64,000 nt of DNA from contig CAXXMW010000008.1 in the NCBI GenBank assembly GCA_963669225.2, positions 24,778-88,777 of the forward strand, given 5' to 3'. Both the position numbers and the translations under genes were made by a program. The DNA is from an uncultured Arenicella sp. GTDB taxonomy: Bacteria > Pseudomonadota > Gammaproteobacteria > Arenicellales > Arenicellaceae. This document shows, in pieces, positions 1-57,603 of this stretch (position 1 is the stretch's first letter; every line of letters begins with the position of its first letter). The notes under the pieces were generated by a model, which saw only the letters and a program-made list of their open reading frames with translations, searched no databases and had not been told where the DNA came from.

Positions 1-1950
1 TGCCAGGCCCGCTTTGTAGTTCAAGCCGACAAGGGGTAACGCATTTCGCACAAGTCGCCAGGTGAGCGAGAACTCGGAGTTGTTCAAGAAGCTCCATCCT
101 GGCGCCCAATTCCAATGAGAGCGAATCTCCTCCGTCGTCCAGCCGTGCCGCTCGCTGAGAGGATCAGAAGCGGAACCCACCACTAGCTCCCGATATAGTT
201 CTTTTCGAGGCCGTGAAAGGTCACTGGACCCAAGAAGGTTACGAAGGGCCGTTCGGCACTCGCGGACAAACAGTGTTTCGCCCAAAGGCCTACGTCGACC
301 TTCAGCCTTTGGGTCTGACTTTAGGCGAGGAAAAGTCCGACTCGCCTTCAGTCTCCACACTGCGTCCCCCGTCAAAGCTCTGCCCAGGTATGCAAGTCTT
401 TCAGCAAGCCAGTGGCTCTCCAGATCAGGCATACCTAGACCCCCGTTGCGTGTACGTTGGATACAGACCTGCCTACGGACCATCGGCCTTGCACCTCCCC
501 AGAGCAATCTGGAAAGGGATCGTTGCAGCGCCAACCGATTTACCTTAGGCAGAGGAAGTACAGCCAATCGGTAAAGGATCAAGGGGAAGACGTACACGGC
601 GCACGCCTCCGCCCTGCCCTTTAAGGACAACCTCCTTGAAAGCCAGATTCCCACCTGAGCATTCACCTTGGCTTGTACTTCCGACCAATTTCGCTCCAGT
701 TGGAGGCCGGGCCCGAACCACACCCCGAGGATGCGGACGGGTCCGTCACTCCAGCGGAACGGCCCCGGAAGAGTATTGCTACCCCTCCAAGCACCGAGCC
801 GCAAACCTTCGCTTTTGTCAAAATTGACCTTGGCTCCTGCAATCCGCTCGTACTCGCTAACCGCCTTCTTCACAGCCTTTATATCCAGACGGCGGGATAC
901 AAACACTGTGATATCATCGGCGAACGCGGAAACCCCTGCCGTAAGAGGGCCAGCAAAAGGGACACCGCGCAGGGCCGGATTTGCCGTCCTATCCCTAAGC
1001 CTACGGAGCAGGGGCTCCAAAGCTAGGACATAGAGAAGAGGAGACAACGGGCAGCCCTGCCGGACCGACCGCTCGACCGCGAACACCGTCGAACGCCTTC
1101 CGTTCACCTGCACCACTGCCTGAGGGTTGTGGTACATCATGCTAATCCATCTGCGGAACTCCGGTTTGAATCCGGCAGTCTCCAAAACAGTCGCCAAAAA
1201 CCGATGGTCAACCCTATCGAAGGCCTTGGACTGATCTAAACTGATCAGCGCGGCCTCGGTGTCGTCTTCTATACCCTCTAGGACCTCGCGAATCAAGTGC
1301 AGGTTGTCCTGGATCGATCTTCCCTTCACAGCAAAGGTCTGCTCAGAGCCGATCAGATCGCTAATGACAAGCTGTAAACGATTCGCTAAGACCCGGGCCA
1401 AAATCTTTAACTCTGTGTTAAGCAGAGTTATGGGCCTGTAATCGTCTAAACCCTCCCAAACATGCCTGCCACCTTTCTTCAGCAATGTGATCACGCCCTT
1501 GGTAACGCTACCAGGGATGGCTCCCTGGGCGAACCAATGGTTGAACATATCCGTCAGAATAGGCACAAACATGTGCGACATCCTCAAGTACACTTCGTAG
1601 GGCAAACCATCTAGTCCCGGCGACTTGTTCAGGCCGACCTGCTTCAACGCGTCACGGACTTCGCATTCAGTAACCACACCCTCGCAGCTAGCCGCTTCAG
1701 CCACCCCAAGGCGGGGGAAGTCGGCAAGATAGCTACGAAACTCCCGGAGCGGGAGATCAGTACAGCGGGCAAAGCGATCCCGAAAGTGCGCCCGAAAGGC
1801 GTCACGAATCTCACGAGTCGATCGCAGCAGTCGCCCATCCGGGGCCTTGACAGAACCGATATACCGATCGGGGAACCTTCGCACTTCTTCTTCACGCGCA
1901 GTCGCGTTCGTTTTCACAGCTTCGTTGAGAACTCTCTTTAACCTAGATCT
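1..1950 (-). pseudogene. ORF2 fragment lacking the endonuclease; retains RT core (QGCPLSP, AFADD); open at the window edge
   Basis: In frame with the equivalent ORF2 region of U1; the upstream UTR sequence has an in-frame TAG at 1960-1962, so there is no fusion ORF. Confidence 0.9.
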
Positions 1951-1951
1951 A
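1..1951 (-). mobile_element. U0: 5'-truncated copy (starts at ORF2 codon ~350, continues beyond left edge)
   Basis: 1-1951 matches U1 3137-5087 (offset 3136). At 1951/1952 the ORF2 sequence AACCTAGATCTA is followed by TTTACCTTCTAG (3' terminus of U1) instead of ACTACGTATCC. Confidence 0.95.
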
Positions 1952-1968
1952 TTTACCTTCTAGTCTAC

Positions 1969-1974
1969 TTTATT
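1969..1974 (-). promoter_or_regulatory. Putative polyadenylation signal AATAAA 17 nt before the element 3' end (same position in every unit, e.g. 8403-8408)
   Basis: Sense strand reads CAGA-AATAAA-GTAGACTAGAAGGTAAA to the terminus defined by the U0 junction; the spacing fits canonical cleavage/polyadenylation. Confidence 0.6.
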
Positions 1975-2659
1975 TCTGTGTAGTGTACACAGAAGGCACA
2001 AGGCCTTGAAGTTTTTGGGGAGGGGAAGGGAGCGGTCATACTTTTCTATATAAACTAAGGAGACCTAGCTAGCCACATTCGCCGACCCATTCAACAATAC
2101 AATAAATATTCATTCATCCATCGCCTTTTGCGCTACAATCACCAAAATACCACATTTGCTCTATGAAGAAGTCCTACTTAAAATCCCGAGATTCGTGAAT
2201 GATTTTATGATTTATTTACAATGAATGTGATGGGAATGGGAGAAAAACCCCGAAATATATACAAAAACAAAGGAAAAATCCCCCGTTTGGTTGCCCTCCC
2301 ATCCCCCCGTCTATAAAATTGGAGGCCGACTGTTTTCCGGGGCGAAAGAACCGGAAACAAGTCGGACCTACCCTAGGTGGGGCAGGGATCCTAATCTACA
2401 GGGGTGAAAAGAATTTAGGGGTCGGGCGCGGTATGGGTTAATACAAGTAGGTGATATGATTTTTATACATATGAATGTTCAAGATCTTCAGTAAACGTGG
2501 ACTGGGATACGGATTGAGGTACAAAAATAATGGGGATGGGGAAGATCTTGAGAACTAACAACTAGATGACGGGGACAATGACTCACAAACATACTGCTAA
2601 CTAGGTACCTGGGTACCAAAAGAAAAAGGGAACAGTTTTACTCACCAGGGGTGGGGTCC

Positions 2660-5600
2660 CTAAGGACCCGTACCGTAGACGCCATGAGCCGGCAGAGGAG
2701 GGAAGGATGACTCCAACGTTGCTCCCTTTCGCACGACCAGGCTCGCTGCATTCACCCACCTTTTGCTGAATGTTATGCGATCCAAGCGTTTTCTATCGCA
2801 TCTGATTTTGACCCTCAGCTGATGCCGAAAATACAAAATCAGATCACGATGAGAAAAGTTTGCATCGTCATACAATCCCTTGTTTCGCGTCGTCCAAATC
2901 ACCATTCTAGCTACAGCTAGGATCGCGAGAAACACCACACGCTTCTCACCCTGATACGGAGGAAGAACGTTGTCCACGACGTAACCAACGTCGAGCAGCA
3001 CGAGCTGTTTGGGTTCGATGCGAGCCGTCCACTCGCCGACGTGATCCCAAAACGGGCGAACTCGCTCGCAGTAGTAGAAGGCGTGCTCAGCCGTTTCTTC
3101 CAAGCCACTGCCGCAGCGAGCGCAATCGGGCATGTCTGCCAGGCCCGCTTTGTAGTTCAAGCCGACAAGGGGTAACGCATTTCGCACAAGTCGCCAGGTG
3201 AGCGAGAACTCGGAGTTGTTCAAGAAGCTCGATCCTGGCGCCCAATTCCAATGAGAGCGAATCTCCTCCGTCGTCCAGCCGTGCCGCTCGCTGAGAGGAT
3301 CAGAAGCGGAACCCACCACTAGCTCCCGATATAGTTCTTTTCGAGGCCGTGAAAGGTCACTGGACCCAAGAAGGTTACGAAGGGCCGTTCGGCACTCGCG
3401 GACAAACAGTGTTTCGCCCAAAGGCCTACGTCGACCTTCAGCCTTTGGGTCTGACTTTAGGCGAGGAAAAGTCCGACTCGCCTTCAGTCTCCACACTGCG
3501 TCCCCCGTCAAGGCTCTGCCCAAGTATGCAAGTCTTTCAGCAAGCCAGTGGCTCTCCAGATCAGGCATACCTAGACCCCCGTTGCGTGTACGTTGGATAC
3601 AGACCTGCCTACGGACCATCGGCCTTGCACCTCCCCAGAGCAATCTGGAAAGGGATCGTTGCAGCGCCAACCGATTTACCTTAGGCAGAGGAAGTACAGC
3701 CAATCGGTAAAGGATCAAGGGGAAGACGTACACGGCGCACGCCTCCGCCCTGCCCTTTAAGGACAACCTCCTTGAAAGCCAGATTCCCACCTGAGCATTC
3801 ACCTTGGCTTGTATTTCCGACCAATTTCGCTCCAGTTGGAGGCCGGGCCCGAACCACACCCCGAGGATGCGGACGGGTCCGTCACTCCAGCGGAACGGCC
3901 CCGGAAGAGTATTGCTACCCCTCCAAGCACCGAGCCGCAAACCTTCGCTTTTGTCAAAATTGACCTTGGCTCCTGCAATCCGCTCGTACTCGCTAACCGC
4001 CTTCTTCACAGCCTTTATATCCAGACGGCGGGATACAAACACTGTGATATCATCGGCGAACGCGGAAACCCTTGCCGTAAGAGGGCCAGCAAAAGGGACA
4101 CCGCGCAGGGCCGGATTTGCCGTCCTATCCCTAAGCCTACGGAGCAGGGGCTCCAAAGCTAGGACATAGAGAAGAGGAGACAACGGGCAGCCCTGCCGGA
4201 CCGACCGCTCGACCGCGAACACCGTCGAACGCCTTCCGTTCACCTGCACCACTGCCTGAGGGTTGTGGTACATCATGCTAATCCATCTGCGGAACTCCGG
4301 TTTGAATCCGGCAGTCTCCAAAACAGTCGCCAAAAACCGATGGTCAACCCTATCGAAGGCCTTGGACTGATCTAAACTGATCAGCGCGGCCTCGGTGCCG
4401 TCTTCTATACCCTCTAGGACCTCGCGAATCAAGTGCAGGTTGTCCTGGATCGATCTTCCCTTCACAGCAAAGGTCTGCTCAGAGCCGATCAGATCGCTAA
4501 TGACAAGCTGTAAACGATTCGCTAAGACCCGGGCCAAAATCTTTAACTCTGTGTTAAGCAGAGTTATGGGCCTGTAATCGTCTAAACCCTCCCAAACATG
4601 CCTGCCACCTTTCTTCAGCAATGTGATCACGCCCTTGGTAACGCTACCAGGGATGGCTCCCTGGGCGAACCAATGGTTGAACATATCCGTCAGAATAGGC
4701 ACAAACATGTGCGACATCCTCAAGTACACTTCGTAGGGCAAACCATCTAGTCCCGGCGACTTGTTCAGGCCGACCTGCTTCAACGCGTCACGGACTTCGC
4801 ATTCAGTAACCACACCCTCGCAGCTAGCCGCTTCAGCCACCCCAAGGCGGGGAAAGTCGGCAAGATAGCTACGAAACTCCCGGAGCGGGAGATCAGTACA
4901 GCGGGCAAAGCGATCCCGAAAGTGCGCCCGAAAGGCGTCACGAATCTCGCGAGCCGATCGCAGCAGTCGCCCATCCGGGGCCTTGACAGAACCGATATAC
5001 CGATCGGGGAACCTTCGCACTTCTTCTTCACGCGCAGTCGCGTTCGTTTTCACAGCTTCGTTGAGAACTCTCTTTAACCTAGATCTAACTACGTATCCCT
5101 TGTAGCGCTCGCTACTCTCGCGCTCAAGGTCCCCCCTAGCTAGCTCTACGTTTAGGGAGTCCCCCCCAGCCACCGCCCGGGAAAGTCTATCGTCTATAGA
5201 TTTCGCTTCCTTGGTCCTATCTAGGTTGAGCTGTTGACCGTACTTGGTAGCGAAATCTCTAATCCTATGTTTAAGAGATCCCCACCACCTATTCCCGGTA
5301 ACCGCCCCCACTAACGCCCGCTGAATTAGGGATTCCAGCCGGTCCCGGAAGTCCCGTATCTCCAGTAAGGAGGTATTGAACTTCCAGTAGCCGGCCAGAC
5401 TAGGCCTATTTGCTAACCGTAGACTGACTCTAACAAGTTTATGGTCAGTCCACGCTATCAAGTGGAACGTGGGACAACTAACAAAATCAATGTCAGCTCG
5501 TCTCACTAACACTCTGTCCAAGTAGGAGCCTACTTTGGCAGAGGGCGAACTATCTAGCCACGTCCACATCTCCCGCCCTGGGTGATCCAGACGAAACCTG

Positions 5601-6127
5601 TCGACGAGGTCATGACGAGTCATGAGGCCGGCAAGGCTGCTTTCACACCTTCCCACACGCCTAGCTCCCCGCCCGACCTTATCTATCTTGGGATCAAGGA
5701 TCGCATTCCAATCACCCATTAAAACTAGCCGCTTCGTATCGTCCAGGAACGGCGCCAACCGACGAAAAAAGGAAACCCTCTCCACAACGATATTGGGCGC
5801 ATAAACCGCAACCAGACGAAACTTGAAACTTTTCACGGCAACATCGGCCACAACCAGTCGGCCCCCGTCACCTGCAAAAACAACGTCAACATCAGCATCA
5901 AGGCTGCGTCCAACTAGCAAAGAAACCCCAACGCTGGTACGGCTGCCGTATGCTGAGAAAACGTTAAAATCGCTTTCCAGCACACGACAGTCGGCACCGC
6001 AAGTGAAATGGGTTTCCTGCACTGCAGCAACATCTACGCCGAGAGTTTTAAGTTCACCAAGCAAGCGCGTACACTTGCCCGGATCCCTCAATCCCCTCAC
6101 ATTCAAAGTAGCAAGGTTTAGAGCCAT
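2660..6127 (-). CDS. U1 ORF2p: APE endonuclease + reverse transcriptase + C-terminal CCHC, 1155 aa
   Basis: EN motifs LNVRG, QETH, VYAP, GDWN, LDR, TDH; RT motifs KSPGLDG, YRPITLLN, LDQSKAFDRV, QGCPLSP, AFADD, ILGV; GGLG motif; CARC-x9-H-x4-C. The ATG at 6127 (MALNLATLNVRG) is preferred over the GTG at 6136. Confidence 0.96.
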   Translation of the reverse strand: MALNLATLNVRGLRDPGKCTRLLGELKTLGVDVAAVQETHFTCGADCRVLESDFNVFSAYGSRTSVGVSLLVGRSLDADVDVVFAGDGGRLVVADVAVKSFKFRLVAVYAPNIVVERVSFFRRLAPFLDDTKRLVLMGDWNAILDPKIDKVGRGARRVGRCESSLAGLMTRHDLVDRFRLDHPGREMWTWLDSSPSAKVGSYLDRVLVRRADIDFVSCPTFHLIAWTDHKLVRVSLRLANRPSLAGYWKFNTSLLEIRDFRDRLESLIQRALVGAVTGNRWWGSLKHRIRDFATKYGQQLNLDRTKEAKSIDDRLSRAVAGGDSLNVELARGDLERESSERYKGYVVRSRLKRVLNEAVKTNATAREEEVRRFPDRYIGSVKAPDGRLLRSAREIRDAFRAHFRDRFARCTDLPLREFRSYLADFPRLGVAEAASCEGVVTECEVRDALKQVGLNKSPGLDGLPYEVYLRMSHMFVPILTDMFNHWFAQGAIPGSVTKGVITLLKKGGRHVWEGLDDYRPITLLNTELKILARVLANRLQLVISDLIGSEQTFAVKGRSIQDNLHLIREVLEGIEDGTEAALISLDQSKAFDRVDHRFLATVLETAGFKPEFRRWISMMYHNPQAVVQVNGRRSTVFAVERSVRQGCPLSPLLYVLALEPLLRRLRDRTANPALRGVPFAGPLTARVSAFADDITVFVSRRLDIKAVKKAVSEYERIAGAKVNFDKSEGLRLGAWRGSNTLPGPFRWSDGPVRILGVWFGPGLQLERNWSEIQAKVNAQVGIWLSRRLSLKGRAEACAVYVFPLILYRLAVLPLPKVNRLALQRSLSRLLWGGARPMVRRQVCIQRTRNGGLGMPDLESHWLAERLAYLGRALTGDAVWRLKASRTFPRLKSDPKAEGRRRPLGETLFVRECRTALRNLLGSSDLSRPRKELYRELVVGSASDPLSERHGWTTEEIRSHWNWAPGSSFLNNSEFSLTWRLVRNALPLVGLNYKAGLADMPDCARCGSGLEETAEHAFYYCERVRPFWDHVGEWTARIEPKQLVLLDVGYVVDNVLPPYQGEKRVVFLAILAVARMVIWTTRNKGLYDDANFSHRDLILYFRHQLRVKIRCDRKRLDRITFSKRWVNAASLVVRKGATLESSFPPLPAHGVYGTGP

Positions 6128-6141
6128 CAATCCCACTTACC

Positions 6142-8089
6142 TTACTCAGTGTCGACTACGGGCCGGAAATCCTTCGGGGTGAGGATGCCGACGGCCTGAC
6201 GCAGGGATCCGGTGCCGAGCTCAGTACTTACTCGGTCGTCCCTGGTAATTCCACCGACATCCATAGGGTACCGCAACTTTAGGGACCTATAGAATGATGG
6301 GTGAACCAAAATCGGGACCCTGCCCGCACAGAAGGGTAGCATTTTTTTCAGCATTGGATTTTTCGTATCGACCAGCATTACATCCGCCCGGCTGGCTTCG
6401 TCAATAAAGTTCCAGAGTTCTTTGGTCCGATTGCCAGCCAAGCGGACGAATGTGGTCAACTTTGGTGCGTCCTTGAATAGATGTGGCTTTGTGATGTCTT
6501 TAGTGTCAATTTTTTGGAGTGAGCGTAATGGTTTTAATGATTGTTTTAAAGTGTGGTCTATGTGTGGATTGTCCATGATATCTTCGCAGAAGTAAAAAGA
6601 GTTTATGGCACGTCGGGCTTCCGTAGAGCGTGCTCTTGGTTTTTGAACAGTTGCTGCTGATGTTGACGGTGTTTGGGGAGAGGGTGTAAGTCTGGTTGCT
6701 GAATAGGATCGAGTAAGCATTTTGGGGGTTTTAATTGGTGAAAGAGAGGGGGGTAATGGTATTTCCGTTGGGATGATAGGGGTTGTTTTTGTTTTTTGTG
6801 GGAGAGGAATCAATTGTGCTGGTCTTTGTTTATTTGGGACTGGTGATTTTTCTGTTGTTTTTTCCCCCTTATTTTGAGGTATGGTGGGTGTTTGTGTGGG
6901 TTTTTTTGGATGTTTTTTCTCCCCCTCTTTAGTTGGTGAATCCTCGCTGTCTCTCCTTCTTTTTAAATTCATGGACATATCCATCGGTTCAATGTTTTGG
7001 TTGTCTTCTTTTGTTGATTGTTTTGCAGTTGATTGTTTCGTATTTGTGGTCGTTGGTTTCGTAGTTGTAGTCAAAAGAGTTGTTGTATCTGTTGTTGCTG
7101 GGTTTTTTAGGGGGAGTTTTTTTCCCTCCCTTTTTTCTGGTGACTTGCGTCCACCCTTCTTCATTTTCTTTAGGGGTTTCTTGTTTGTTTTCTGAGGTTT
7201 CTGTTGGTATTATTGCTGCTATGACAGGTGAAGGAGTAGCAGTAGTAGTAGTAGTAGTATTCGTTGTTGTGGTGGTGATTGTTGATTTTTGAGGGCAGTT
7301 TTTTGAAAAGTGGCCGATGTTATTGCAAAACCAACATAGCGGTTTCCTGCCCTCAACTATGACTGTCATGGTTTGATCGCGGTAACGTATTTTATGGGGA
7401 ATTTTGTTAAACCCTCCCCTATCGAGGCATATAACGAATACGTAGTCACCGTACGCAGTTCCCCGTGTTGACGTTACTTGTGTGACTTGTTCCACGCCGC
7501 CGTATATACTTAGATAGGCGGCGAGGACGTCACCACTCAATTGCATAGATACATTGCATACGGTGACTCGTATTCTTCTTTTGCCTCGATATTCCGGTTG
7601 TAGCCGGAAGAAGCGTGTGGTGATGTTACCACCGGCGAGGCTTTTCGCTACTTCCTCTGAGGGTAATAAGACATCCCAGGTCGCGAAACTTCTGCGGCAG
7701 AAGTACTTCCCTGGGATGTTTGCTGTTTTGAGAAGGTCCTCAAAAGTTTCCTTCTTAATCCCCGCTAGTCTCTTGGTCTTAATGTCTGTGACTACGAAGG
7801 ACAGGGTCTTCGGTTCGACCGCCTCGACCAATTCGGGTATTGGGAGAATTTCCCCGTCCTTGAAATACTTTTCATACTTTTCGACCCTGTCTCTTGCGTA
7901 GTCACAAGGGGATTTTTTATTCACGCAATGTGAAGACCAAGAGACAGCCGTTTGTTTTTGTTTTTGTGCCGGTGGTATTGTACTTGCCGATGAAGAGAGG
8001 TCGAATGGAGCTTCTTCCGGCATTGGGGAGGGTTGCGTTTTGAATATGTCGGTCGGTGATTGCGATTTCATGTTGTTGGGCTCCCCCAT
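6142..8089 (-). pseudogene. U1 ORF1 with a +1 frameshift in the homopolymer tract near 7090-7100
   Basis: Span is 1948 nt (not a multiple of 3); the track splits it into 6989..8089 and 6142..7164. CTGGGTTTTTTAGGGGG has one base more than intact alleles; could be a sequencing error. Confidence 0.85.
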
Positions 8090-8385
8090 AGTTGTGAAAA
8101 CACAACCAGAGGGAGATGAAACGCGTATGGTGTTGCAAAAAATTCAGGCGAGACGAATAAATGTAGAACGATGAATGTTGATAAAAATGGCGGTCGTTTT
8201 TTTTTTAAAAAAGTTCAACAAAAAAATCGAGTCGCGTTTGACCCTCCTCACAAACAAAGAACAATAGTTTGAGGGGGGTCACAAAACTTTAACAACAATA
8301 ACAATATTCAATAACAATAATTTTAACAAATTTTTAACAATAAAGAACTTACTTTTTCGTGGTGAAAAAGAACTCAGACAAAAAA
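8090..8385 (-). promoter_or_regulatory. 5' UTR (~296 nt), presumed internal Pol II promoter region; repeated in each unit
   Basis: Lies between the unit head and the ORF1 ATG; AT-rich, with AACAAT repeats and two hairpins. Promoter function is inferred from L1-clade biology. Confidence 0.55.
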
Positions 8386-8407
8386 TTTACCTTCTAGTCT
8401 GCTTTAT

Positions 8408-8428
8408 TTCTGTGTAGTGTACACAGAA
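8408..8428. other. Perfect 9-bp hairpin TTCTGTGTA-GTG-TACACAGAA immediately 5' of AATAAA in the sense RNA
   Basis: The arms are exact reverse complements; present in all tails, altered at two positions in U5 (around 27710-27722). Confidence 0.7.
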
Positions 8429-8450
8429 GGCACAAGGCCTTGAAGTTTTT

Positions 8451-8513
8451 GGGGAGGGGAAGGGAGCGGTCATACTTTTCTATATAAACTAAGGAGACCT
8501 AGCTAGCCACATT
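8451..8513 (+). promoter_or_regulatory. Candidate antisense core promoter: GGGGAGGGG, TATATAAA (8481), Inr-like CCACATT (8507)
   Basis: The Inr A at 8509 lies 28 nt after the first T of the TATA box; motif order and spacing are the same in all ten tails. Motif match only. Confidence 0.4.
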
Positions 8514-8758
8514 CGCCGACCCATTCAACAATACAATAAATATCCATTCATCCATCGCCTTTTGCGCTACAATCACCAAAATACCACATTTGCTCTATGA
8601 AGAAGTCCTACTTAAAATCCCGAGATTCATGAATGATTTTATGATTTATTTACAATGAATGTGATGGGAATGGGAGAAAAACCCCGAAATATATATAAAA
8701 ACAAGGAAAAATCCCCCGTTTGGTTGCCCTCCCATCCCCCCGTCTATAAAATTGGAGG

Positions 8759-8798
8759 CCGACTGTTTTCCGGGGCGAAAGAACCGGAAACAAGTCGG
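8759..8798. other. 3' UTR stem-loop CCGACT-GTTTTCCGG-GGCGAAAGAA-CCGGAAAC-A-AGTCGG
   Basis: About 14 bp of stem with two single-base bulges; unchanged in all tails inspected. Confidence 0.65.
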
Positions 8799-8911
8799 AC
8801 CTACCCTAGGTGGGGCAGGGATCCTAATCTACAGGGGTGAAAAGAATTTAGGGGTCGGGCGCGGTATGGGTTAATACAAGTAGGTGATATGATTTTTATA
8901 CATATGAATGT

Positions 8912-8984
8912 TCAAGATCTTCAGTAAACGTGGACTGGGATACGGATTGAGGTACAAAAATAATGGGGATGGGGAAGATCTTGA
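8912..8984. other. 11-bp perfect inverted repeat TCAAGATCTTC ... GAAGATCTTGA enclosing 51 nt
   Basis: 8912-8922 and 8974-8984 are exact reverse complements; conserved between units. Confidence 0.6.
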
Positions 8985-9092
8985 GAACTAACAACTAGAT
9001 GACGGGGACAATGACTCACAAACATACTGCTAACTAGGTACCTGGGTACCAAAAGAAAAAGGGAACAGTTTTACTCACCAGGGGTGGGGTCC

Positions 9093-12000
9093 CTAAGGAC
9101 CCGTACCGTAGACGCCATGAGCCGGCAGAGGAGGGAAGGATGACTCCAACGTTGCTCCCTTTCGCACGACCAGGCTCGCTGCATTCACCCACCTTTTGCT
9201 GAATGTTATGCGATCCAAGCGTTTTCTATCGCATCTGATTTTGACCCTCAGCTGATGCCGAAAATACAAAATCAGATCACGATGAGAAAAGTTTGCATCG
9301 TCATACAATCCCTTGTTTCGCGTCGTCCAAATCACCATTCTAGCTACAGCTAGGATCGCGAGAAACACCACACGCTTCTCACCCTGATACGGAGGAAGAA
9401 CGTTGTCCACGACGTAACCAACGTCGAGCAGCACGAGCTGTTTGGGTTCGATGCGAGCCGTCCACTCGCCGACGTGATCCCAAAACGGGCGAACTCGCTC
9501 GCAGTAGTAGAAGGCGTGCTCAGCCGTTTCTTCCAAGCCACTGCCGCAGCGAGCGCAATCGGGCATGTCTGCCAGGCCCGCTTTGTAGTTCAAGCCGACA
9601 AGGGGTAACGCATTTCGCACAAGTCGCCAGGTGAGCGAGAACTCGGAGTTGTTCAAGAAGCTCGATCCTGGCGCCCAATTCCAATGAGAGCGAATCTCCT
9701 CCGTCGTCCAGCCGTGCCGCTCGCTGAGAGGATCAGAAGCGGAACCCACCACTAGCTCCCGATATAGTTCTTTTCGAGGCCGTGAAAGGTCACTGGACCC
9801 AAGAAGGTTACGAAGGGCCGTTCGGCACTCGCGGACAAACAGTGTTTCGCCCAAAGGCCTACGTCGACCTTCAGCCTTTGGGTCTGACTTTAGGCGAGGA
9901 AAAGTCCGACTCGCCTTCAGTCTCCACACTGCGTCCCCCGTCAAAGCTCTGCCCAGGTATGCAAGTCTTTCAGCAAGCCAGTGGCTCTCCAGATCAGGCA
10001 TACCTAGACCCCCGTTGCGTGTACGTTGGATACAGACCTGCCTACGGACCATCGGCCTTGCACCTCCCCAGAGCAATCTGGAAAGGGATCGTTGCAGCGC
10101 CAACCGATTTACCTTAGGCAGAGGAAGTACAGCCAATCGGTAAAGGATCAAGGGGAAGACGTACACGGCGCACGCCTCCGCCCTGCCCTTTAAGGACAAC
10201 CTCCTTGAAAGCCAGATTCCCACCTGAGCATTCACCTTGGCTTGTATTTCCGACCAATTTCGCTCCAGTTGGAGGCCGGGCCCGAACCACACCCCGAGGA
10301 TGCGGACGGGTCCGTCACTCCAGCGGAACGGCCCCGGAAGAGTATTGCTACCCCTCCAAGCACCGAGCCGCAAACCTTCGCTTTTGTCAAAATTGACCTT
10401 GGCTCCTGCAATCCGCTCGTACTCGCTAACCGCCTTCTTCACAGCCTTTATATCCAGACGGCGGGATACAAACACTGTGATATCATCGGCGAACGCGGAA
10501 ACCCTTGCCGTAAGAGGGCCAGCAAAAGGGACACCGCGCAGGGCCGGATTTGCCGTCCTATCCCTAAGCCTACGGAGCAGGGGCTCCAAAGCTAGGACAT
10601 AGAGAAGAGGAGACAACGGGCAGCCCTGCCGGACCGACCGCTCGACCGCGAACACCGTCGAACGCCTTCCGTTCACCTGCACCACTGCCTGAGGGTTGTG
10701 GTACATCATGCTAATCCATCTGCGGAACTCCGGTTTGAATCCGGCAGTCTCCAAAACAGTCGCCAAAAACCGATGGTCAACCCTATCGAAGGCCTTGGAC
10801 TGATCTAAACTGATCAGCGCGGCCTCGGTGCCGTCTTCTATACCCTCTAGGACCTCGCGAATCAAGTGCAGGTTGTCCTGGATCGATCTTCCCTTCACAG
10901 CAAAGGTCTGCTCAGAGCCGATCAGATCGCTAATGACAAGCTGTAAACGATTCGCTAAGACCCGGGCCAAAATCTTTAACTCTGTGTTAAGCAGAGTTAT
11001 GGGCCTGTAATCGTCTAAACCCTCCCAAACATGCCTGCCACCTTTCTTCAGCAATGTGATCACGCCCTTGGTAACGCTACCAGGGATGGCTCCCTGGGCG
11101 AACCAATGGTTGAACATATCCGTCAGAATAGGCACAAACATGTGCGACATCCTCAAGTACACTTCGTAGGGCAAACCATCTAGTCCCGGCGACTTGTTCA
11201 GGCCGACCTGCTTCAACGCGTCACGGACTTCGCATTCAGTAACCACACCCTCGCAGCTAGCCGCTTCAGCCACCCCAAGGCGGGGAAAGTCGGCAAGATA
11301 GCTACGAAACTCCCGGAGCGGGAGATCAGTACAGCGGGCAAAGCGATCCCGAAAGTGCGCCCGAAAGGCGTCACGAATCTCACGAGTCGATCGCAGCAGT
11401 CGCCCATCCGGGGCCTTGACAGAACCGATATACCGATCGGGGAACCTTCGCACTTCTTCTTCACGCGCAGTCGCGTTCGTTTTCACAGCTTCGTTGAGAA
11501 CTCTCTTTAACCTAGATCTAACTACGTATCCCTTGTAGCGCTCGCTACTCTCGCGCTCAAGGTCCCCCCTAGCTAGCTCTACGTTTAGGGAGTCCCCCCC
11601 AGCCACCGCCCGGGAAAGTCTATCGTCTATAGATTTCGCTTCCTTGGTCCTATCTAGGTTGAGCTGTCGACCGTACTTGGTAGCGAAATCTCTAATCCTA
11701 TGTTTAAGAGATCCCCACCACCTATTCCCGGTAACCGCCCCCACTAACGCCCGCTGAATTAGGGATTCCAACCGGTCCCGGAAGTCCCGTATCTCCAGTA
11801 AGGAGGTATTGAACTTCCAGTAGCCGGCCAGACTAGGCCTATTTGCTAACCGTAGACTGACTCTAACAAGTTTATGGTCAGTCCACGCTATCAAGTGGAA
11901 CGTGGGACAACTAACAAAATCAATGTCAGCTCGTCTCACTAACACTCTGTCCAAGTAGGAGCCTACTTTGGCAGAGGGCGAACTATCTAGCCACGTCCAC

Positions 12001-12560
12001 ATCTCCCGCCCTGGGTGATCCAGACGAAACCTGTCGACGAGGTCATGACGAGTCATGAGGCCGGCAAGGCTGCTTTCACACCTTCCCACACGCCTAGCTC
12101 CCCGCCCGACCTTATCTATCTTGGGATCAAGGATCGCATTCCAATCACCCATTAAAACTAGCCGCTTCGTATCGTCCAGGAACGGCGCCAACCGACGAAA
12201 AAAGGAAACCCTCTCCACAACGATATTGGGCGCATAAACCGCAACCAGACGAAACTTGAAACTTTTCACGGCAACATCGGCCACAACCAGTCGGCCCCCG
12301 TCACCTGCAAAAACAACGTCAACATCAGCATCAAGGCTGCGTCCAACTAGCAAAGAAACCCCAACGCTGGTACGGCTGCCGTATGCTGAGAAAACGTTAA
12401 AATCGCTTTCCAGCACACGACAGTCGGCACCGCAAGTGAAGTGGGTTTCCTGCACTGCAGCAACATCTACGCCGAGAGTTTTAAGTTCACCAAGCAAGCG
12501 CGTACACTTGCCCGGATCCCTCAATCCCCTCACATTCAAAGTAGCAAGGTTTAGAGCCAT
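9093..12560 (-). CDS. U2 ORF2p (APE-EN/RT/CCHC), intact
   Basis: Open frame in the track (9093..12569); same catalytic motifs as U1. Confidence 0.96.
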   Translation of the reverse strand: MALNLATLNVRGLRDPGKCTRLLGELKTLGVDVAAVQETHFTCGADCRVLESDFNVFSAYGSRTSVGVSLLVGRSLDADVDVVFAGDGGRLVVADVAVKSFKFRLVAVYAPNIVVERVSFFRRLAPFLDDTKRLVLMGDWNAILDPKIDKVGRGARRVGRCESSLAGLMTRHDLVDRFRLDHPGREMWTWLDSSPSAKVGSYLDRVLVRRADIDFVSCPTFHLIAWTDHKLVRVSLRLANRPSLAGYWKFNTSLLEIRDFRDRLESLIQRALVGAVTGNRWWGSLKHRIRDFATKYGRQLNLDRTKEAKSIDDRLSRAVAGGDSLNVELARGDLERESSERYKGYVVRSRLKRVLNEAVKTNATAREEEVRRFPDRYIGSVKAPDGRLLRSTREIRDAFRAHFRDRFARCTDLPLREFRSYLADFPRLGVAEAASCEGVVTECEVRDALKQVGLNKSPGLDGLPYEVYLRMSHMFVPILTDMFNHWFAQGAIPGSVTKGVITLLKKGGRHVWEGLDDYRPITLLNTELKILARVLANRLQLVISDLIGSEQTFAVKGRSIQDNLHLIREVLEGIEDGTEAALISLDQSKAFDRVDHRFLATVLETAGFKPEFRRWISMMYHNPQAVVQVNGRRSTVFAVERSVRQGCPLSPLLYVLALEPLLRRLRDRTANPALRGVPFAGPLTARVSAFADDITVFVSRRLDIKAVKKAVSEYERIAGAKVNFDKSEGLRLGAWRGSNTLPGPFRWSDGPVRILGVWFGPGLQLERNWSEIQAKVNAQVGIWLSRRLSLKGRAEACAVYVFPLILYRLAVLPLPKVNRLALQRSLSRLLWGGARPMVRRQVCIQRTRNGGLGMPDLESHWLAERLAYLGRALTGDAVWRLKASRTFPRLKSDPKAEGRRRPLGETLFVRECRTALRNLLGSSDLSRPRKELYRELVVGSASDPLSERHGWTTEEIRSHWNWAPGSSFLNNSEFSLTWRLVRNALPLVGLNYKAGLADMPDCARCGSGLEETAEHAFYYCERVRPFWDHVGEWTARIEPKQLVLLDVGYVVDNVLPPYQGEKRVVFLAILAVARMVIWTTRNKGLYDDANFSHRDLILYFRHQLRVKIRCDRKRLDRITFSKRWVNAASLVVRKGATLESSFPPLPAHGVYGTGP

Positions 12561-12574
12561 CAATCCCACTTACC

Positions 12575-14518
12575 TTACTCAGTGTCGACTACGGGCCGGA
12601 AATCCTTGGGAGTAAGGATGCCGACGGCCTGACGCAGGGATCCGGTGCCGAGCTCAGTACTTACTCGGTCGTCCCTGGTAATTCCACCGACATCCATAGG
12701 GTACCGCAACTTTAGGGACCTATAGAATGATGGGTGAACCAAAATCGGGACCCTGCCCGCACAGAAGGGTAGCATTTTTTTCAGCATTGGATTTTTCGTA
12801 TCGACCAGCATTACATCCGCCCGGCTGGCTTCGTCAATAAAGTTCCAAAGTTCTTTGGTCCGATTGCCAGCCAAGCGGACGAATGTGGTCAATTTTGGTG
12901 CGTCCTTGAATAGATGTGGTTTTGTGATGTCTTTAGTGTCAATTTTTTGGAGTGAGCGTAATGGTTTTAATGATTGTTTTAAAGTGTGGTCTATGTGTGG
13001 ATTGTCCATGATATCTTCGCAGAAGTAAAAAGAGTTTATGGCACGTCGGGCTTCCGTAGAGCGTGCTCTTGGTTTTTGAACAGTTGCTGCTGATGTTGAC
13101 GGTGTTTGGGGAGAGGGTGTAAGTCTGGTTGCTGAATAGGATCGAGTAAGCATTTTGGGGGTTTTAATTGGTGAAAGAGAGGGGGGTAATGGTGTTTCTG
13201 TTGGGATGATAGGGGTGGTTTTTGTTTTTTGTGGGAGAGGAATCAATTGTGCTGGTCTTTGTTTATTTTGGACTGGCGATTTTTCTGTTGTTTTTTCCCC
13301 CTTATGCTGAGGTATGGTGGTTGTTTGTGTGGGTTTTTTTGGATGTTTTTTCTCCCCCTCTTTAGTTGGTGAATCCTCGCTGTTTCTCCTTCTTTTTAAA
13401 TTCATGGACATATCCATCGGTTCAATGTTTTGATTGTCTTCTTTTGTTGATTGTTTTGCAGTTGATTGTTTCGTATTTGTGGTCGTTGGTTTCGTAGTTG
13501 TAGTCAAAAGAGTTGTTGTATCTGTTGTTGCTGGTTTTTTAGGGGGAGTTTTTTTCCCTCCCTTTTTTTTGGTGACTTGCGTCCACCCTTCTTCATTTTC
13601 TTTAGGGGTTTCTTGTTTGTTTTCTGAGGTTTCTGTTTGTATTATTGCTGCTATGACAGGTGAAGGAGTAGCAGTAGTAGTAGTAGTATTCGTTGTTGTG
13701 GTGGTGATTGTTGATTTTTGAGGGCAGTTTTTTGAAAAGTGGCCGATGTTATTGCAAAACCAACATAGCGGTTTCCTGCCCTCAACTATGACTGTCATGG
13801 TTTGTTCGCGGTATCGTATTTTATGGGGAATTTTGTTAAACCCTCCCCTATCGAGGCACATAACGAATACGTAGTCACCGTACGCGGTTCCCCGTGTTGA
13901 CGTTACTTGTGTGACTTGTTCCACGCCGCCGTATATACTTAGATAGGCGGCGAGGACGTCACCACTCAATTGCATAGATACATTGCATACGGTGACTCGT
14001 ATTCTTCTTTTGCCTCGATATTCCGGTTGTAGCCGGAAGAAGCGTGTGGTGATGTTACCACCGGCGAGGCTTTTCGCTACTTCCTCTGAGGGTAATAAGA
14101 CATCCCAGGTCGCGAAACTTCTGCGGCAGAAGTATTTCCCTGGGATGTTTGCTGTTTTGAGAAGGTCCTCAAATGTCTCCTTTTTTATCCCCGCTAGTCT
14201 CTTGGTCTTAATGTCCGTGACTACGAAGGACAGGGTCTTTGGTTCGACCGCCTCGACCAATTCGGGTATTGGGAGAATTTCCCCGTCCTTGAAATATTTT
14301 TCATATTTTTCGACCCTGTCTCTTGCGTAGTCACAAGGGGATTTTTTATTCACGCAATGTGAAGACCAAGAGACAGCCGTTTGTTTTTGTTTTTGTGCCG
14401 GTGGTATTGTACTTGCCGATGAAGAGAGGTCGAATGGAGCTTCTTCCGGCATTGGGGAGGGTTGCGTTTGGAATATGTCGGTCGGTGATTGCGATTTCAT
14501 GTTGTTGGGCTCCCCCAT
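12575..14518 (-). CDS. U2 ORF1p, 647 aa nucleic-acid-binding protein
   Basis: RRM-like segment (IRVTVCNV...YLSIYGGVEQV...EGRKP) followed by a C-x2-C-x4-H-x4-C knuckle (CWFCNNIGHFSKNC, 13724-13765), as is typical of Tx1-type ORF1; then a T/P/K-rich tract and a C-terminal domain. Confidence 0.92.
   Translation of the reverse strand: MGEPNNMKSQSPTDIFQTQPSPMPEEAPFDLSSSASTIPPAQKQKQTAVSWSSHCVNKKSPCDYARDRVEKYEKYFKDGEILPIPELVEAVEPKTLSFVVTDIKTKRLAGIKKETFEDLLKTANIPGKYFCRRSFATWDVLLPSEEVAKSLAGGNITTRFFRLQPEYRGKRRIRVTVCNVSMQLSGDVLAAYLSIYGGVEQVTQVTSTRGTAYGDYVFVMCLDRGGFNKIPHKIRYREQTMTVIVEGRKPLCWFCNNIGHFSKNCPQKSTITTTTTNTTTTTATPSPVIAAIIQTETSENKQETPKENEEGWTQVTKKKGGKKTPPKKPATTDTTTLLTTTTKPTTTNTKQSTAKQSTKEDNQNIEPMDMSMNLKRRRNSEDSPTKEGEKKHPKKPTQTTTIPQHKGEKTTEKSPVQNKQRPAQLIPLPQKTKTTPIIPTETPLPPSLSPIKTPKMLTRSYSATRLTPSPQTPSTSAATVQKPRARSTEARRAINSFYFCEDIMDNPHIDHTLKQSLKPLRSLQKIDTKDITKPHLFKDAPKLTTFVRLAGNRTKELWNFIDEASRADVMLVDTKNPMLKKMLPFCAGRVPILVHPSFYRSLKLRYPMDVGGITRDDRVSTELGTGSLRQAVGILTPKDFRPVVDTE
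13668..13712 (-). repeat. Coding trinucleotide microsatellite (ACC/ACA/ACT)n giving a poly-Thr tract in ORF1
   Basis: Plus strand reads GCAGTAGTAGTAGTAGTATTCGTTGTTGTGGTGGTG; length varies by whole codons among units. Confidence 0.8.
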
Positions 14519-15527
14519 AGTTGTGAAAACACAACCAGAGGGAGATGAAACGCGTATGGTGTTGCAAAAAATTCAGGCGAGACGAATAAATGTAGAACGA
14601 TGAATGTTGATAAAAATGGCGGTCGTTTTTTTAAAAAAGTTCAACAAAAAAATCGAGTCGCGTTTGACCCTCCTCACAAACAAAGAACAATAGTTTGAGG
14701 GGGGTCACAAAACTTTAACAATGATAACAATATTCAATAACAATAATTTAAACAAATTTTTAACAATAAAGAACTTACTTTTTCGTGGTGAAAAAGAACT
14801 CAGACAAAAAATTCACCTTCTAGTCTGCTTTATTTCTGTGTAGTGTACACAGAAGGCACAAGGCCTTGAAGTTTTTGGGGAGGGGAAGGGAGCGGTCATA
14901 CTTTTCTATATAAACTAAGGAGACCTAGCTAGCCACATTCGCCGACCCATTCAACAATACAATAAATATCCATTCATCCATCGCCTTTTGCGCTACAATC
15001 ACCACAATACCACATTTGCTCTATGAAGAAGTCCTACTTAAAATCCCGAGATTCATGAATGATTTTATTTACAAGTATGATTTATTTACAATGAATGTGA
15101 TGGGAATGGGAGAAAAACCCCGAAATATATATAAAAACAAGGAAAAATCCCCCGTTTGGTTGCCCTCCCATCCCCCCGTCTATAAAATTGGAGGCCGACT
15201 GTTTTCCGGGGCGAAAGAACCGGAAACAAGTCGGACCTACCCTAGGTGGGGCAGGGATCCTAATCTACAGGGGTGAAAAGAATTTAGGGGTCGGGCGCGG
15301 TATGGGTTAATACAAGTAGGTGATATGATTTTTATACATATGAATGTTCAAGATCTTCAGTAAACGTGGACTGGGATGCGGGTTCAGGTACAAAAATAAT
15401 GGGGATGGGGAAGATCTTGAGAACTAACAACTAGATGACGGGGACAATGACTCACAAACATACTGCTAACTAGGTACCTGGGTACCAAAGAAAAAGGGAA
15501 CAGTTTTACTCACCAGGGGTGGGGTCC

Positions 15528-18500
15528 CTAAGGACCCGTACCGTAGACGCCATGAGCCGGCAGAGGAGGGAAGGATGACTCCAACGTTGCTCCCTTTCGC
15601 ACGACCAGGCTCGCTGCATTCACCCACCTTTTGCTGAATGTTATGCGATCCAAGCGTTTTCTATCGCATCTGATTTTGACCCTCAGCTGATGCCGAAAAT
15701 ACAAAATCAGATCACGATGAGAAAAGTTTGCATCGTCATACAATCCCTTGTTTCGCGTCGTCCAAATCACCATTCTAGCTACAGCTAGGATCGCGAGAAA
15801 CACCACACGCTTCTCACCCTGATACGGAGGAAGAACGTTGTCCACGACGTAACCAACGTCGAGCAGCACGAGCTGTTTGGGTTCGATGCGAGCCGTCCAC
15901 TCGCCGACGTGATCCCAAAACGGGCGAACTCGCTCGCAGTAGTAGAAGGCGTGCTCAGCCGTTTCTTCCAAGCCACTGCCGCAGCGAGCGCAATCGGGCA
16001 TGTCTGCCAGGCCCGCTTTGTAGTTCAAGCCGACAAGGGGTAACGCATTTCGCACAAGTCGCCAGGTGAGCGAGAACTCGGAGTTGTTCAAGAAGCTCGA
16101 TCCTGGCGCCCAATTCCAATGAGAGCGAATCTCCTCCGTCGTCCAGCCGTGCCGCTCGCTGAGAGGATCAGAAGCGGAACCCACCACTAGCTCCCGATAT
16201 AGTTCTTTTCGAGGCCGTGAAAGGTCACTGGACCCAAGAAGGTTACGAAGGGCCGTTCGGCACTCGCGGACAAACAGTGTTTCGCCCAAAGGCCTACGTC
16301 GACCTTCAGCCTTTGGGTCTGACTTTAGGCGAGGAAAAGTCCGACTCGCCTTCAGTCTCCACACTGCGTCCCCCGTCAAAGCTCTGCCCAGGTATGCAAG
16401 TCTTTCAGCAAGCCAGTGGCTCTCCAGATCAGGCATACCTAGACCCCCGTTGCGTGTACGTTGGATACAGACCTGCCTACGGACCATCGGCCTTGCACCT
16501 CCCCAGAGCAATCTGGAAAGGGATCGTTGCAGCGCCAACCGATTTACCTTAGGCAGAGGAAGTACAGCCAATCGGTAAAGGATCAAGGGGAAGACGTACA
16601 CGGCGCACGCCTCCGCCCTGCCCTTTAAGGACAACCTCCTTGAAAGCCAGATTCCCACCTGAGCATTCACCTTGGCTTGTATTTCCGACCAATTTCGCTC
16701 CAGTTGGAGGCCGGGCCCGAACCACACCCCGAGGATGCGGACGGGTCCGTCACTCCAGCGGAACGGCCCCGGAAGAGTATTGCTACCCCTCCAAGCACCG
16801 AGCCGCAAACCTTCGCTTTTGTCAAAATTGACCTTGGCTCCTGCAATCCGCTCGTACTCGCTAACCGCCTTCTTCACAGCCTTTATATCCAGACGGCGGG
16901 ATACAAACACTGTGATATCATCGGCGAACGCGGAAACCCTTGCCGTAAGAGGGCCAGCAAAAGGGACACCGCGCAGGGCCGGATTTGCCGTCCTATCCCT
17001 AAGCCTACGGAGCAGGGGCTCCAAAGCTAGGACATAGAGAAGAGGAGACAACGGGCAGCCCTGCCGGACCGACCGCTCGACCGCGAACACCGTCGAACGC
17101 CTTCCGTTCACCTGCACCACTGCCTGAGGGTTGTGGTACATCATGCTAATCCATCTGCGGAACTCCGGTTTGAATCCGGCAGTCTCCAAAACAGTCGCCA
17201 AAAACCGATGGTCAACCCTATCGAAGGCCTTGGACTGATCTAAACTGATCAGCGCGGCCTCGGTGTCGTCTTCTATACCCTCTAGGACCTCGCGAATCAA
17301 GTGCAGGTTGTCCTGGATCGATCTTCCCTTCACAGCAAAGGTCTGCTCAGAGCCGATCAGATCGCTAATGACAAGCTGTAAACGATTCGCTAAGACCCGG
17401 GCCAAAATCTTTAACTCTGTGTTAAGCAGAGTTATGGGCCTGTAATCGTCTAAACCCTCCCAAACATGCCTGCCACCTTTCTTCAGCAATGTGATCACGC
17501 CCTTGGTAACGCTACCAGGGATGGCTCCCTGGGCGAACCAATGGTTGAACATATCCGTCAGAATAGGCACAAACATGTGCGACATCCTCAAGTACACTTC
17601 GTAGGGCAAACCATCTAGTCCCGGCGACTTGTTCAGGCCGACCTGCTTCAACGCGTCACGGACTTCGCATTCAGTAACCACACCCTCGCAGCTAGCCGCT
17701 TCAGCCACCCCAAGGCGGGGAAAGTCGGCAAGATAGCTACGAAACTCCCGGAGCGGGAGATCAGTACAGCGGGCAAAGCGATCCCGAAAGTGCGCCCGAA
17801 AGGCGTCACGAATCTCGCGAGCCGATCGCAGCAGTCGCCCATCCGGGGCCTTGACAGAACCGATATACCGATCGGGGAACCTTCGCACTTCTTCTTCACG
17901 CGCAGTCGCGTTCGTTTTCACAGCTTCGTTGAGAACTCTCTTTAACCTAGATCTAACTACGTATCCCTTGTAGCGCTCGCTACTCTCGCGCTCAAGGTCC
18001 CCCCTAGCTAGCTCTACGTTTAGGGAGTCCCCCCCAGCCACCGCCCGGGAAAGTCTATCGTCTATAGATTTCGCTTCCTTGGTCCTATCTAGGTTGAGCT
18101 GTCGACCGTACTTGGTAGCGAAATCTCTAATCCTATGTTTAAGAGATCCCCACCACCTATTCCCGGTAACCGCCCCCACTAACGCCCGCTGAATTAGGGA
18201 TTCCAGCCGGTCCCGGAAGTCCCGTATCTCCAGTAAGGAGGTATTGAACTTCCAGTAGCCGGCCAGACTAGGCCTATTTGCTAACCGTAGACTGACTCTA
18301 ACAAGTTTATGGTCAGTCCACGCTATCAAGTGGAACGTGGGACAACTAACAAAATCAATGTCAGCTCGTCTCACTAACACTCTGTCCAAGTAGGAGCCTA
18401 CTTTGGCAGAGGGCGAACTATCTAGCCACGTCCACATCTCCCGCCCTGGGTGATCCAGACGAAACCTGTCGACGAGGTCATGACGAGTCATGAGGCCGGC

Positions 18501-18995: not shown

Positions 18996-19009
18996 CAATC
19001 CCACTTACC

Positions 19010-20953: not shown

Positions 20954-21955
20954 AGTTGTGAAAACACAACCAGAGGGAGATGAAACGCGTATGGTGTTGC
21001 AAAAAATTCAGGCGAGACGAATAAATGTAGAACGATGAATGTTGATAAAAATGGCGGTCGTTTTTTAAAAAAGTTCAACAAAAAAATCGAGTCGCGTTTG
21101 ACCCTCCTCACAAACAAAGAACAATAGTTTGAGGGGGGTCACAAAACTTTAACAATGATAACAATATTCAATAACAATAATTTTAACAAATTTTTAACAA
21201 TAAAGAACTTACTTTTTTTCGTGGTGAAAAAAGAACTCAGACAAAAAAATTTACCTTCTAGTCTGCTTTATTTCTGTGTAGTGTACACAGAAGGCACAAG
21301 GCCTTGAAGTTTTTGGGGAGGGGAAGGGAGCGGTCATACTTTTCTATATAAACTAAGGAGACCTAGCTAGCCACATTCGCCGACCCATTCAACAATACAA
21401 TAAATATCCATTCATCCATCGCCTTTTGCGCTACAATCACCACAATACCACATTTGCTCTATGAAGAAGTCCTACTTAAAATCCCGAGATTCATGAATGA
21501 TTTTATGATTTATTTACAATGAATGTGATGGGAATGGGAGAAAAACCCCGAAATATATATAAAAACAAGGAAAAATCCCCCGTTTGGTTGCCCTCCCATC
21601 CCCCCGTCTATAAAATTGGAGGCCGACTGTTTTCCGGGGCGAAAGAACCGGAAACAAGTCGGACCTACCCTAGGTGGGGCAGGGATCCTAATCTACAGGG
21701 GTGAAAAGAATTTAGGGGTCGGGCGCGGTATGGGTTAATACAAGTAGGTGATATGATTTTTATACATATGAATGTTCAAGATCTTCAGTAAACGTGGACT
21801 GGGATACGGATTGAGGTACAAAAATAATGGGGATGGGGAAGATCTTGAGAACTAACAACTAGATGACGGGGACAATGACTCACAAACATACTGCTAACTA
21901 GGTACCTGGGTACCAAAGAAAAAGGGAACAGTTTTACTCACCAGGGGTGGGGTCC

Positions 21956-25423: not shown

Positions 25424-25437
25424 CAATCCCACTTACC

Positions 25438-31840: not shown

Positions 31841-31854
31841 CAATCCCACTTACC

Positions 31855-38265: not shown

Positions 38266-38279
38266 CAATCCCACTTACC

Positions 38280-44697: not shown

Positions 44698-44711
44698 CAA
44701 TCCCACTTACC

Positions 44712-51143: not shown

Positions 51144-51157
51144 CAATCCCACTTACC

Positions 51158-57589: not shown

Positions 57590-57603
57590 CAATCCCACTT
57601 ACC

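Follow-up and report, generated by a model that had tools for sequence, protein, structure and literature searches.

The window analyzed here, 64,000 nucleotides of contig CAXXMW010000008.1 from an assembly assigned to an uncultured Arenicella sp., is a single head-to-tail tandem array, on the minus strand and with a period of 6416-6446 bp, of what, judging by its coding content, is a Tx1-like non-LTR (long terminal repeat) retrotransposon. It is probable that this long interspersed nuclear element (LINE), which prefers one insertion site, builds the array on the duplication of its own target, and that unequal exchange then remodels the array. The array comprises nine complete units (U1-U9) and, where the window ends, an incomplete further unit (U10); at the low-coordinate end lies a partial copy, T0 (positions 1-1951). 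The sequence that separates the units, GCAGACTAGAAGGT(G/A)AA, is not the 3' tail of the element: it is a 17-bp target-site duplication (TSD) that comes from a site within a dispersed repeat of about 345 bp.

The evidence for this assignment comes from other copies of the family (loci L001-L008, L010 and L011), which were fetched from a public assembly via the proteins encoded by their second open reading frame (ORF2). A full-length singleton of the window's own subfamily, L010, which is 98% identical, carries a clean 17-bp TSD on both sides and reads ...aaataccaga / GCAGACTAGAAGGTGAA / aTTTTTTGTCTGAG...CACAGAAATAAA / GCAGACTAGAAGGTGAA / gagcagtttcttatagg (flank gagcagtttc; here and below, a slash marks a boundary). 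In L008, another array of that subfamily comes to its end; its internal junctions resemble those of the window, and the flank in which it ends is internal to a 364-kb contig. The last unit of this array reads AATAAA / GCAGACTAGAAGGTGAAGAGCAGCTTCTTATAGG, and the flank downstream of it is shared with L006 and L010. L006, a member of a subfamily with a different 5' untranslated region (UTR), lies in a third copy of the repeat, between the same flanks, with a TSD of 14 bp, GCAAACTAGAAGGT. The flanks of these three loci align over 77 bp upstream and about 260 bp downstream, at 85-93% identity, and diverge beyond. The same position of the target repeat is occupied at four independent loci, namely, the window, L006, L008 and L010, and the spacer in yet another array, L011, is a two-substitution variant of the same 17-mer. 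The element inserts sequence-specifically and prefers one site; this property and the Tx1-like affinity, both suggested by the earlier note on this DNA, which was made from the letters of the window, are supported, the best named match being Xenopus Tx1.

Sequencing reads extend this picture beyond the assembled loci. In Hi-C reads, the head of the element is preceded by ACTAATACCAGG+GCAGACTAGAAGGTGAAT (18 and 24 reads), and in DNA contigs as well as three RNA data sets, the tail is followed by GGT / GAAGAGCAGCTTCTTA. Genome-wide, the GAA spelling is commoner than AAA at this position of the spacer in the Hi-C reads, which makes the AAA of the window a local variant. How the spacer is spelled depends on the locus, with GGTAAA in the window, GGTAAAA in L008 and GCAGACCAGAATGTGAA in L011, as fits a duplicated target.

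The target repeat, TGTTGGGTATCACCC...CAGAACGCAAC, is dispersed and of the size of a miniature inverted-repeat transposable element (MITE). It occupies L010:7649-7742 and 14188-14438, and L006:7530-7620 and 14171-14432, and it is bordered by AAAAAT on both sides in L010 and by AGTTTA/AGTTGA in L006. An Rfam search with the repeat gave nothing credible, and a comparison of its ends for terminal inverted repeats yielded just a weak GTTG(G/C)GT match; the repeat may be a MITE with 6-bp TSDs.

Where the element itself ends is shown by four copies outside the preferred site, L003, L004, L005 and L007. All of them end ...GAAATAAA and continue directly into a TSD of their own (18, 17, 15 and 13 bp, respectively) that is unrelated to the 17-mer, with neither the 14-mer nor the 17-mer in between. 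The family, then, makes TSDs of 13-18 bp, and the RNA-derived part ends at AATAAA in every copy examined. Because the dispersed copies end at AATAAA, the 17-bp GCAGACTAGAAGGTAAA that had been taken for the tail lies beyond the end of the element. The boundary between the tail and the duplicated target is unreadable from the array alone, so single copies are needed to place it. The off-target sites open with a similar CAG..CT..TAG motif, namely, GTCAGTCTAGA in L004, (A)GCAGCTGTAG in L005 and (A)CAGTAGCTGTA in L007, which suggests that a short motif near the nick might be recognized by the element.

Two further observations concern the two ends of the transcribed element. The isolated full-length copy L005 has, inside its own 15-bp TSD, an 18-nt leader that resembles the spacer (GCAGACTAATAGTTTTGA, L005:7682-7699); given this resemblance, transcription of the template RNA of L005 appears to have begun within the target copy that lay upstream of its source element, so that the landing site was transduced at the 5' end, which hints at transcript starts in the upstream spacer. 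At the other end, RNA contigs from runs X6, X8, X13 and X14 (window 8236-8535) span the 3' UTR and extend past the 14-mer into native flank; no such contig spans a tail-to-head junction or includes the first ~70 nt of the head. It seems that singletons or units at array edges are what is expressed, or else that transcription starts further downstream.

The second line of evidence is the join at the low-coordinate end of the window. On the plus strand, positions 1940-1968 read CTAGATCTA / TTTACCTTCTAGTCTAC, whereas the interior of all full units instead runs CTAGATCTA-ACTACG; the normal junctions read CTCAGACAAAAAA / TTTACCTTC (CAAAAAA / TTTACC). The join at 1951/1952 is present just as the earlier note had described it, leading from ...GAAGGTAAA into ORF2 at codon ~350 with an overlap of 1 nt: the shared A (sense T) constitutes 1 nt of microhomology that fits either side. 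Position 1951 corresponds to U1 coordinate 5087, and 3298 bp are absent from T0. Aligned to the full units with an offset of 3136, T0 (1-1951, minus strand) is a 5'-truncated copy that begins at ORF2 codon ~350 and runs off the start of the window; its divergence from the other units is 2.6-5.6 substitutions per kb. The spacer between the 3' end of U1 and T0 (1952-1968, minus strand; sense GTAGACTAGAAGGTAAA) is a 17-bp copy of the duplicated target, the 17-mer that forms the TSD of the singleton L010, and carries GTAGAC (A at 1967), a variant seen in no other part of the window. The nine full tail-head junctions that the note had counted are indeed there, but they are not uniform as it had held: GGTGAA occurs once (14812), GGTAAAA twice (46958 and 53404) and a run of seven T once (21249).

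The start of the T0 body coincides exactly with the end of the TSD of L010, and a random breakpoint would fall within 1 nt of this boundary in about 3 of 6430 cases. Read depth over ORF2 is 6-10 times that over the 5' region, and 5' truncation must, therefore, be common in the family; L007, which is truncated at unit nt 2606 and carries two extra bases at an unrelated upstream flank, is an example. T0 looks like a 5'-truncated, target-primed insertion that was placed exactly at the site between units, and on this point the proposal of the earlier note stands up well, T0 starting precisely where the TSD ends. As a check, the note had proposed asking whether truncated copies genome-wide abut GAAGGTAAA, and had itself named random upstream flanks in most of them as the observation that would count against its model. 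An unrelated flank, along with a 13-bp TSD, is what L007 has, which speaks against a genome-wide rule; of the truncated copies examined, T0 alone abuts the spacer. Splicing was also considered as the origin of T0, given that GAAG / GTAAAT resembles a splice donor, and was rejected by inspection, the join retaining GGTAAA.

The third line of evidence, that units of such arrays can arise through RNA, comes from L011, a third array, which belongs to a sister subfamily and has a period of 6593 bp (ERZ21867824 ctg67091l). In its unit A (L011:912-5589, compared with the neighbor at 7504-12182), 144 of the 177 substitutions are A>G on the sense strand, and the neighboring bases are ADAR-like, with U/A favored 5' and G favored 3' of the changed base. 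At the protein level, A>G changes alone explain 93 of the 95 amino acid differences between the protein P0007 and the ORF2 of the window, all of them in codons 78-513. Because this A>G pattern is a signature of RNA editing, the hyperedited unit entered the L011 array by retrotransposition, and hence array units can arise via an RNA intermediate. A whole 31.5-kb contig (L001/L002; ERZ21867824 ctg88761c) is likewise a tandem array of a sister subfamily, with a period of 6820 bp; this subfamily is 92.7% identical in ORF2, has a different 5' region of 375 bp, and its junction, AATAAA(A) / TTGTGTGTTTTATTGC, has no recognizable 17-mer.

Taken together, these observations suggest the following scenario. 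The preferred site, inside the dispersed repeat of about 345 bp, would be ...ACCAG(G/A/T)^GCAGACTAGAAGGTGAA^GAGCAG..., where the endonuclease would nick the bottom strand at the left caret, that is, at AATAAA / GCAGAC (after ...CTAGTCTGC), reverse transcription would begin at the ...GAAAUAAA end of the RNA, and the top strand would be cut about 17 bp downstream, at the right caret, after GGTGAA. Given this offset of the second cut, every insertion would come to be flanked by two 17-mers, and since each copy of the 17-mer retains the site, further insertions would land beside the first one, giving the series 17-mer, unit, 17-mer, unit, and so on. In the case of T0, synthesis of the complementary DNA (cDNA) would have halted at ORF2 codon ~350, and its joining to the end of the upstream 17-mer would have involved 1 nt of microhomology. 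Later unequal exchange and gene conversion between units would have reshuffled, and probably expanded, the array. Under this scenario, the internal 17-mer alone would be sufficient as a target. A bolder version, which we advance only tentatively and consider rather less likely than its negation, is that the 17-bp spacer suffices even without the flanks of the repeat, so that a first landing creates self-made targets and the array grows by retrotransposition, not recombination. Were this the case, an element of this kind could become a satellite-like array of full-length, coding-competent LINEs. On this bolder view, a transcript that begins in the upstream spacer would also let the tip of its cDNA base-pair with the cut target, and precise full-length joining could be guided in this way, as proposed for R1/R2 co-transcripts.

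Several observations weigh against target-duplication growth as the origin of the array. Among the copies of the target repeat that were recovered, none is empty, and the positions of the nicks are those read from the junctions. The 3' end of T0, together with its downstream spacer, lies beyond the window, so that the TSD pair of T0 is not visible. The remaining adverse points, namely, the relationships among the units of the window and the absence of the 1951/1952 join from public reads, bear directly on two alternative explanations and are considered with them.

The alternative that fares best, although we regard it as unlikely, is that one double insertion gave rise to a dimer, that all subsequent growth was by unequal exchange, and that T0 resulted from a later 3.3-kb deletion through end joining. 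The relationships among the units are quite compatible with such a history. The pairwise divergence of units is 0.08-1.0%, with adjacent units tending to be the most similar, and the sharing of variants is mosaic, with two columns of the unit alignment alternating from U1 to U6; both the similarity of neighbors and the mosaic pattern fit pure unequal exchange after a single double insertion. The alternating columns, both in ORF2 (3441, A in U2, U4 and U6; 3446, C in U1, U3 and U5), look like a two-unit higher-order repeat, as expected of unequal exchange in dimer register. Among the private substitutions of the window's own units, no excess of A>G was found, that is, these units lack the signature seen in L011; the 1 nt of microhomology at the join fits end joining as well; and this very route has been documented for the R1 array of Drosophila (PMC5932611). 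However, under this explanation, the deletion breakpoint must hit, at the odds of about 3 in 6430 given above, the boundary between TSD and element that is set independently by L010; moreover, truncated insertions are common in the family, and the sister array L011 holds a unit derived from RNA. The mosaic pattern suggests unequal exchange or gene conversion, without proving either, and also fits growth by target duplication followed by remodeling; reinsertion and unequal exchange may both have contributed to the size of the array.

Less likely again is that the join at 1951/1952 is an assembly artefact, produced by a chimeric read or by a wrong join within a long repeat. This possibility draws on the absence of the join from eight public read sets: of the 280 and 351 reads that match 1922-1951 in two Hi-C runs, not one continues into 1952 and beyond, and none of the contigs from six other runs (X1-X5 and X16) crosses 1951/1952. 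Alleles private to U1 are present in the Hi-C reads, with 5-7 reads at the rarest sites, from which some 2-9 crossing reads per run would be expected. On the other side, overlap-based assembly joins homologous sequence and makes no non-homologous breakpoint, and a random chimera would not land exactly at the end of the TSD. Furthermore, the tested runs lack some of the U1 alleles (for example, the T at 2110 is missing in X1), so that these runs probably come from other individuals or haplotypes. The join may be private to the assembled individual or haplotype, or may be an artefact.

The explanation that the earlier note itself had offered now appears very improbable. It took ...GAAGGTAAA to be the element's own tail and the end of its RNA, placed the nick at AAAAAATTT^ACC with priming on the terminal A's and a duplication of 3-4 nt, and had the array target nothing other than itself. 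This idea is understandable in that the nine tail-to-head junctions and T0 all carry the same sequence, that most of the internal spacers read AAA and could pass for a short A tail, and that AATAAA followed by the 14-mer does occur in RNA contigs. The copies outside the window tell a different story. The 17-mer stands on both sides of the singleton L010, within unrelated repeat sequence, and so ...GAAGGTAAA is a duplicated target, the RNA-derived part ending ...GAAATAAA; the existence of copies ending ...AATAAAGCAGACTAGAAGGTAAA and flanked by unrelated TSDs would be required, whereas L003, L004, L005 and L007 stop at AATAAA. The RNA contigs run into the native flank, GAAGAGCAGC, not into poly(A), and the spacer is spelled differently from locus to locus, irrespective of element subfamily. 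The duplication measures 17 bp, or 14 bp in L006, within the 13-18 bp range of the family and not 3-4 nt, and, as far as the junctions tell, the first-strand nick would be at AATAAA / GCAGAC, 17 bp away from TTT^ACC, which would instead correspond to the cut in the second strand. The notion that an insertion rebuilds its target survives in part, in that the site is regenerated and the array can grow on it; the corollary, that no host target is involved, does not, given the pre-existing 17-bp site in the ~345-bp repeat at L006, L008 and L010. Finally, a concatemer made by telomere-style end addition, as by HeT-A/TART, or by end-to-end template jumping during reverse transcription is the least tenable of all, because a target-derived 17-mer separates every unit from the next, the array of L008 runs out into native flank within a contig, and units that differ by up to 1% are unfit for a single cDNA. 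What speaks for it is that the array, with its head-to-tail order and an older, 5'-truncated copy downstream, looks like those of Drosophila telomeres, and that the R2 reverse transcriptase jumps between templates.

The coding content of the units underlies the assignment of the element. ORF2 encodes a protein of 1158 amino acids (aa) that matches the Pfam families Exo_endo_phos at aa 9-232 (E 6.6e-9) and RVT_1 at aa 510-761 (E 4.6e-33), along with a weak C-terminal match to zf-RVT, at 21.4 bits under the 27.5 cut-off. ORF1 encodes 647-649 aa across the units and includes a putative CCHC knuckle, its zf-CCHC score of 21.3 bits lying above the cut-off of 20.8. Among named homologues of ORF2, the best is the ORF2 of Xenopus Tx1 (30% identity, E 1e-90). 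By these matches, the element is a Tx1-like non-LTR retrotransposon with an APE-type endonuclease and a reverse transcriptase, the Tx1 link resting on the best named match. A host RNA gene hidden in the unit was considered and rejected: in three units, Rfam gave no matches at E<=1, and no tRNAs were found.

All units and target copies are on the minus strand. The body of U1 (1969-8385) extends, in the sense direction, from TTTTTTGTCTGAG to CACAGAAATAAA, with ORF2 (2660-6136) intact and ORF1 frameshifted (6142-7164 and 6989-8089); it is separated from U2 by a 17-bp target copy, GCAGACTAGAAGGTAAA (8386-8402). U2 (8403-14811) has both ORF2 (9093-12569, 1158 aa) and ORF1 (12575-14518, 647 aa) intact, and the target copy between U3 and U2 (14812-14828, 17 bp) has the native spelling, GCAGACTAGAAGGTGAA, identical to the target in L010 and L008. 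Both ORFs are also intact in U3 (14829-21249), the unit with seven T at its head, which is followed by a 17-bp target copy (21250-21266) and by U4 (21267-27679), where ORF2 is intact and ORF1 broken. Beyond the next 17-bp copy (27680-27696), both ORFs are broken in U5 (27697-34095), which has 18 private substitutions; then, past another copy of 17 bp (34096-34112), comes U6 (34113-40522), with ORF1 intact and ORF2 broken (the 768-aa product P0020, 35968-38274). The 17-bp copy at 40523-40539 leads to U7 (40540-46957), with both ORFs intact, whereas the target copies between U8 and U7 (46958-46975) and between U9 and U8 (53404-53421) each have one extra A (GGTAAAA). U8 (46976-53403), which differs from U9 by 0.8 substitutions per kb, and U9 itself (53422-59848) again have both ORFs intact. 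After a last 17-bp copy (59849-59865), U10 (59866-64000) is represented by its 3' part. Altogether, seven of the nine complete units have an intact ORF2 and six have an intact ORF1, and both are intact in U2, U3, U7, U8 and U9.

Some minor features recur from unit to unit. The 5' UTR contains a short repeat, (TAACAATAATTT)n, at window positions 8312-8343 and the equivalent positions, and another, (AGTAGCAGTAGT)n, is found in the Thr-rich, low-complexity part of ORF1 (26530-26558 and equivalents), where the length differences between units are concentrated. Every unit also has a plus-strand ORF of 121 aa antisense to ORF2 (668-1033, 3804-4169, 10237-10602), which is most likely a by-product of the codon composition of ORF2.

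Array formation via target duplication is a known route, and no new self-targeting mechanism is involved. The closest parallel to the window is the R1 array of Drosophila melanogaster, where the units are separated by a 33-nt duplication of the ribosomal DNA target (McGurk & Barbash 2018, PMC5932611). In the "double insertion" model put forward for tandem transposable elements, R1 tandems with 5' truncations are taken as signs of independent insertions, and the later expansion and reshuffling of arrays is put down to unequal exchange (PMC5932611). In both cases, a site-specific LINE of the APE type forms tandem units with an identical target duplication between them. The R1 array differs in that the target is the 28S rRNA gene, the spacer is 33 nt long and the element belongs to the R1 clade, whereas here the site is 17 bp within a ~345-bp repeat, the element is Tx1-like, and five of the nine complete units retain both ORFs intact.

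With respect to the target, the parallel is Tx1L of Xenopus, which inserts in the non-autonomous transposon Tx1D, described as a piggyBac derivative (Kojima 2015, PMC4494074). There, as in the window, a LINE of the Tx1 lineage has a specific target inside another, non-autonomous repeat family; Tx1D, however, is a piggyBac derivative, the repeat in question here is unclassified, and the relationship between the two LINEs is distant (30% identity). With respect to arrangement, crocodilian SINEU-3, a short interspersed nuclear element (SINE), forms tandem copies in Mariner-N4_AMi "sandwiching a TSD", which were attributed to sequential insertion (Kojima 2015, PMC4494074). SINEU-3, whose TSD is ~16 bp, shares with the element of the window the single preferred site in a repeat, there derived from a DNA transposon; the difference is that the tandem copies of SINEU-3 are short and mostly dimers, whereas here 6.4-kb autonomous elements form arrays of at least 10 units. 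Zepp of Chlorella and Coccomyxa forms clusters that have been described as nested elements (PMC3446292). Like the element in the window, Zepp is a LINE that piles up in its own clusters, but these are nested and not head-to-tail with a fixed target duplication. HeT-A and TART have no target duplication between units and occupy chromosome ends, whereas the arrays discussed here lie within an internal repeat, where L008 shows native flank to the right and Hi-C reads show it to the left. What they have in common with the window is the head-to-tail organization of LINE arrays with 5'-truncated members (PMC5932611).

Against this background, the window appears to be a long and clear example, with at least 10 units over 64 kb, of a site-specific LINE whose own target duplication seeds a satellite-like array. 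For studies of target recognition in the Tx1 lineage, it offers a defined 17-bp site together with a compact endonuclease, and the target itself, another small repeat, parallels the insertion of Tx1L in Tx1D.

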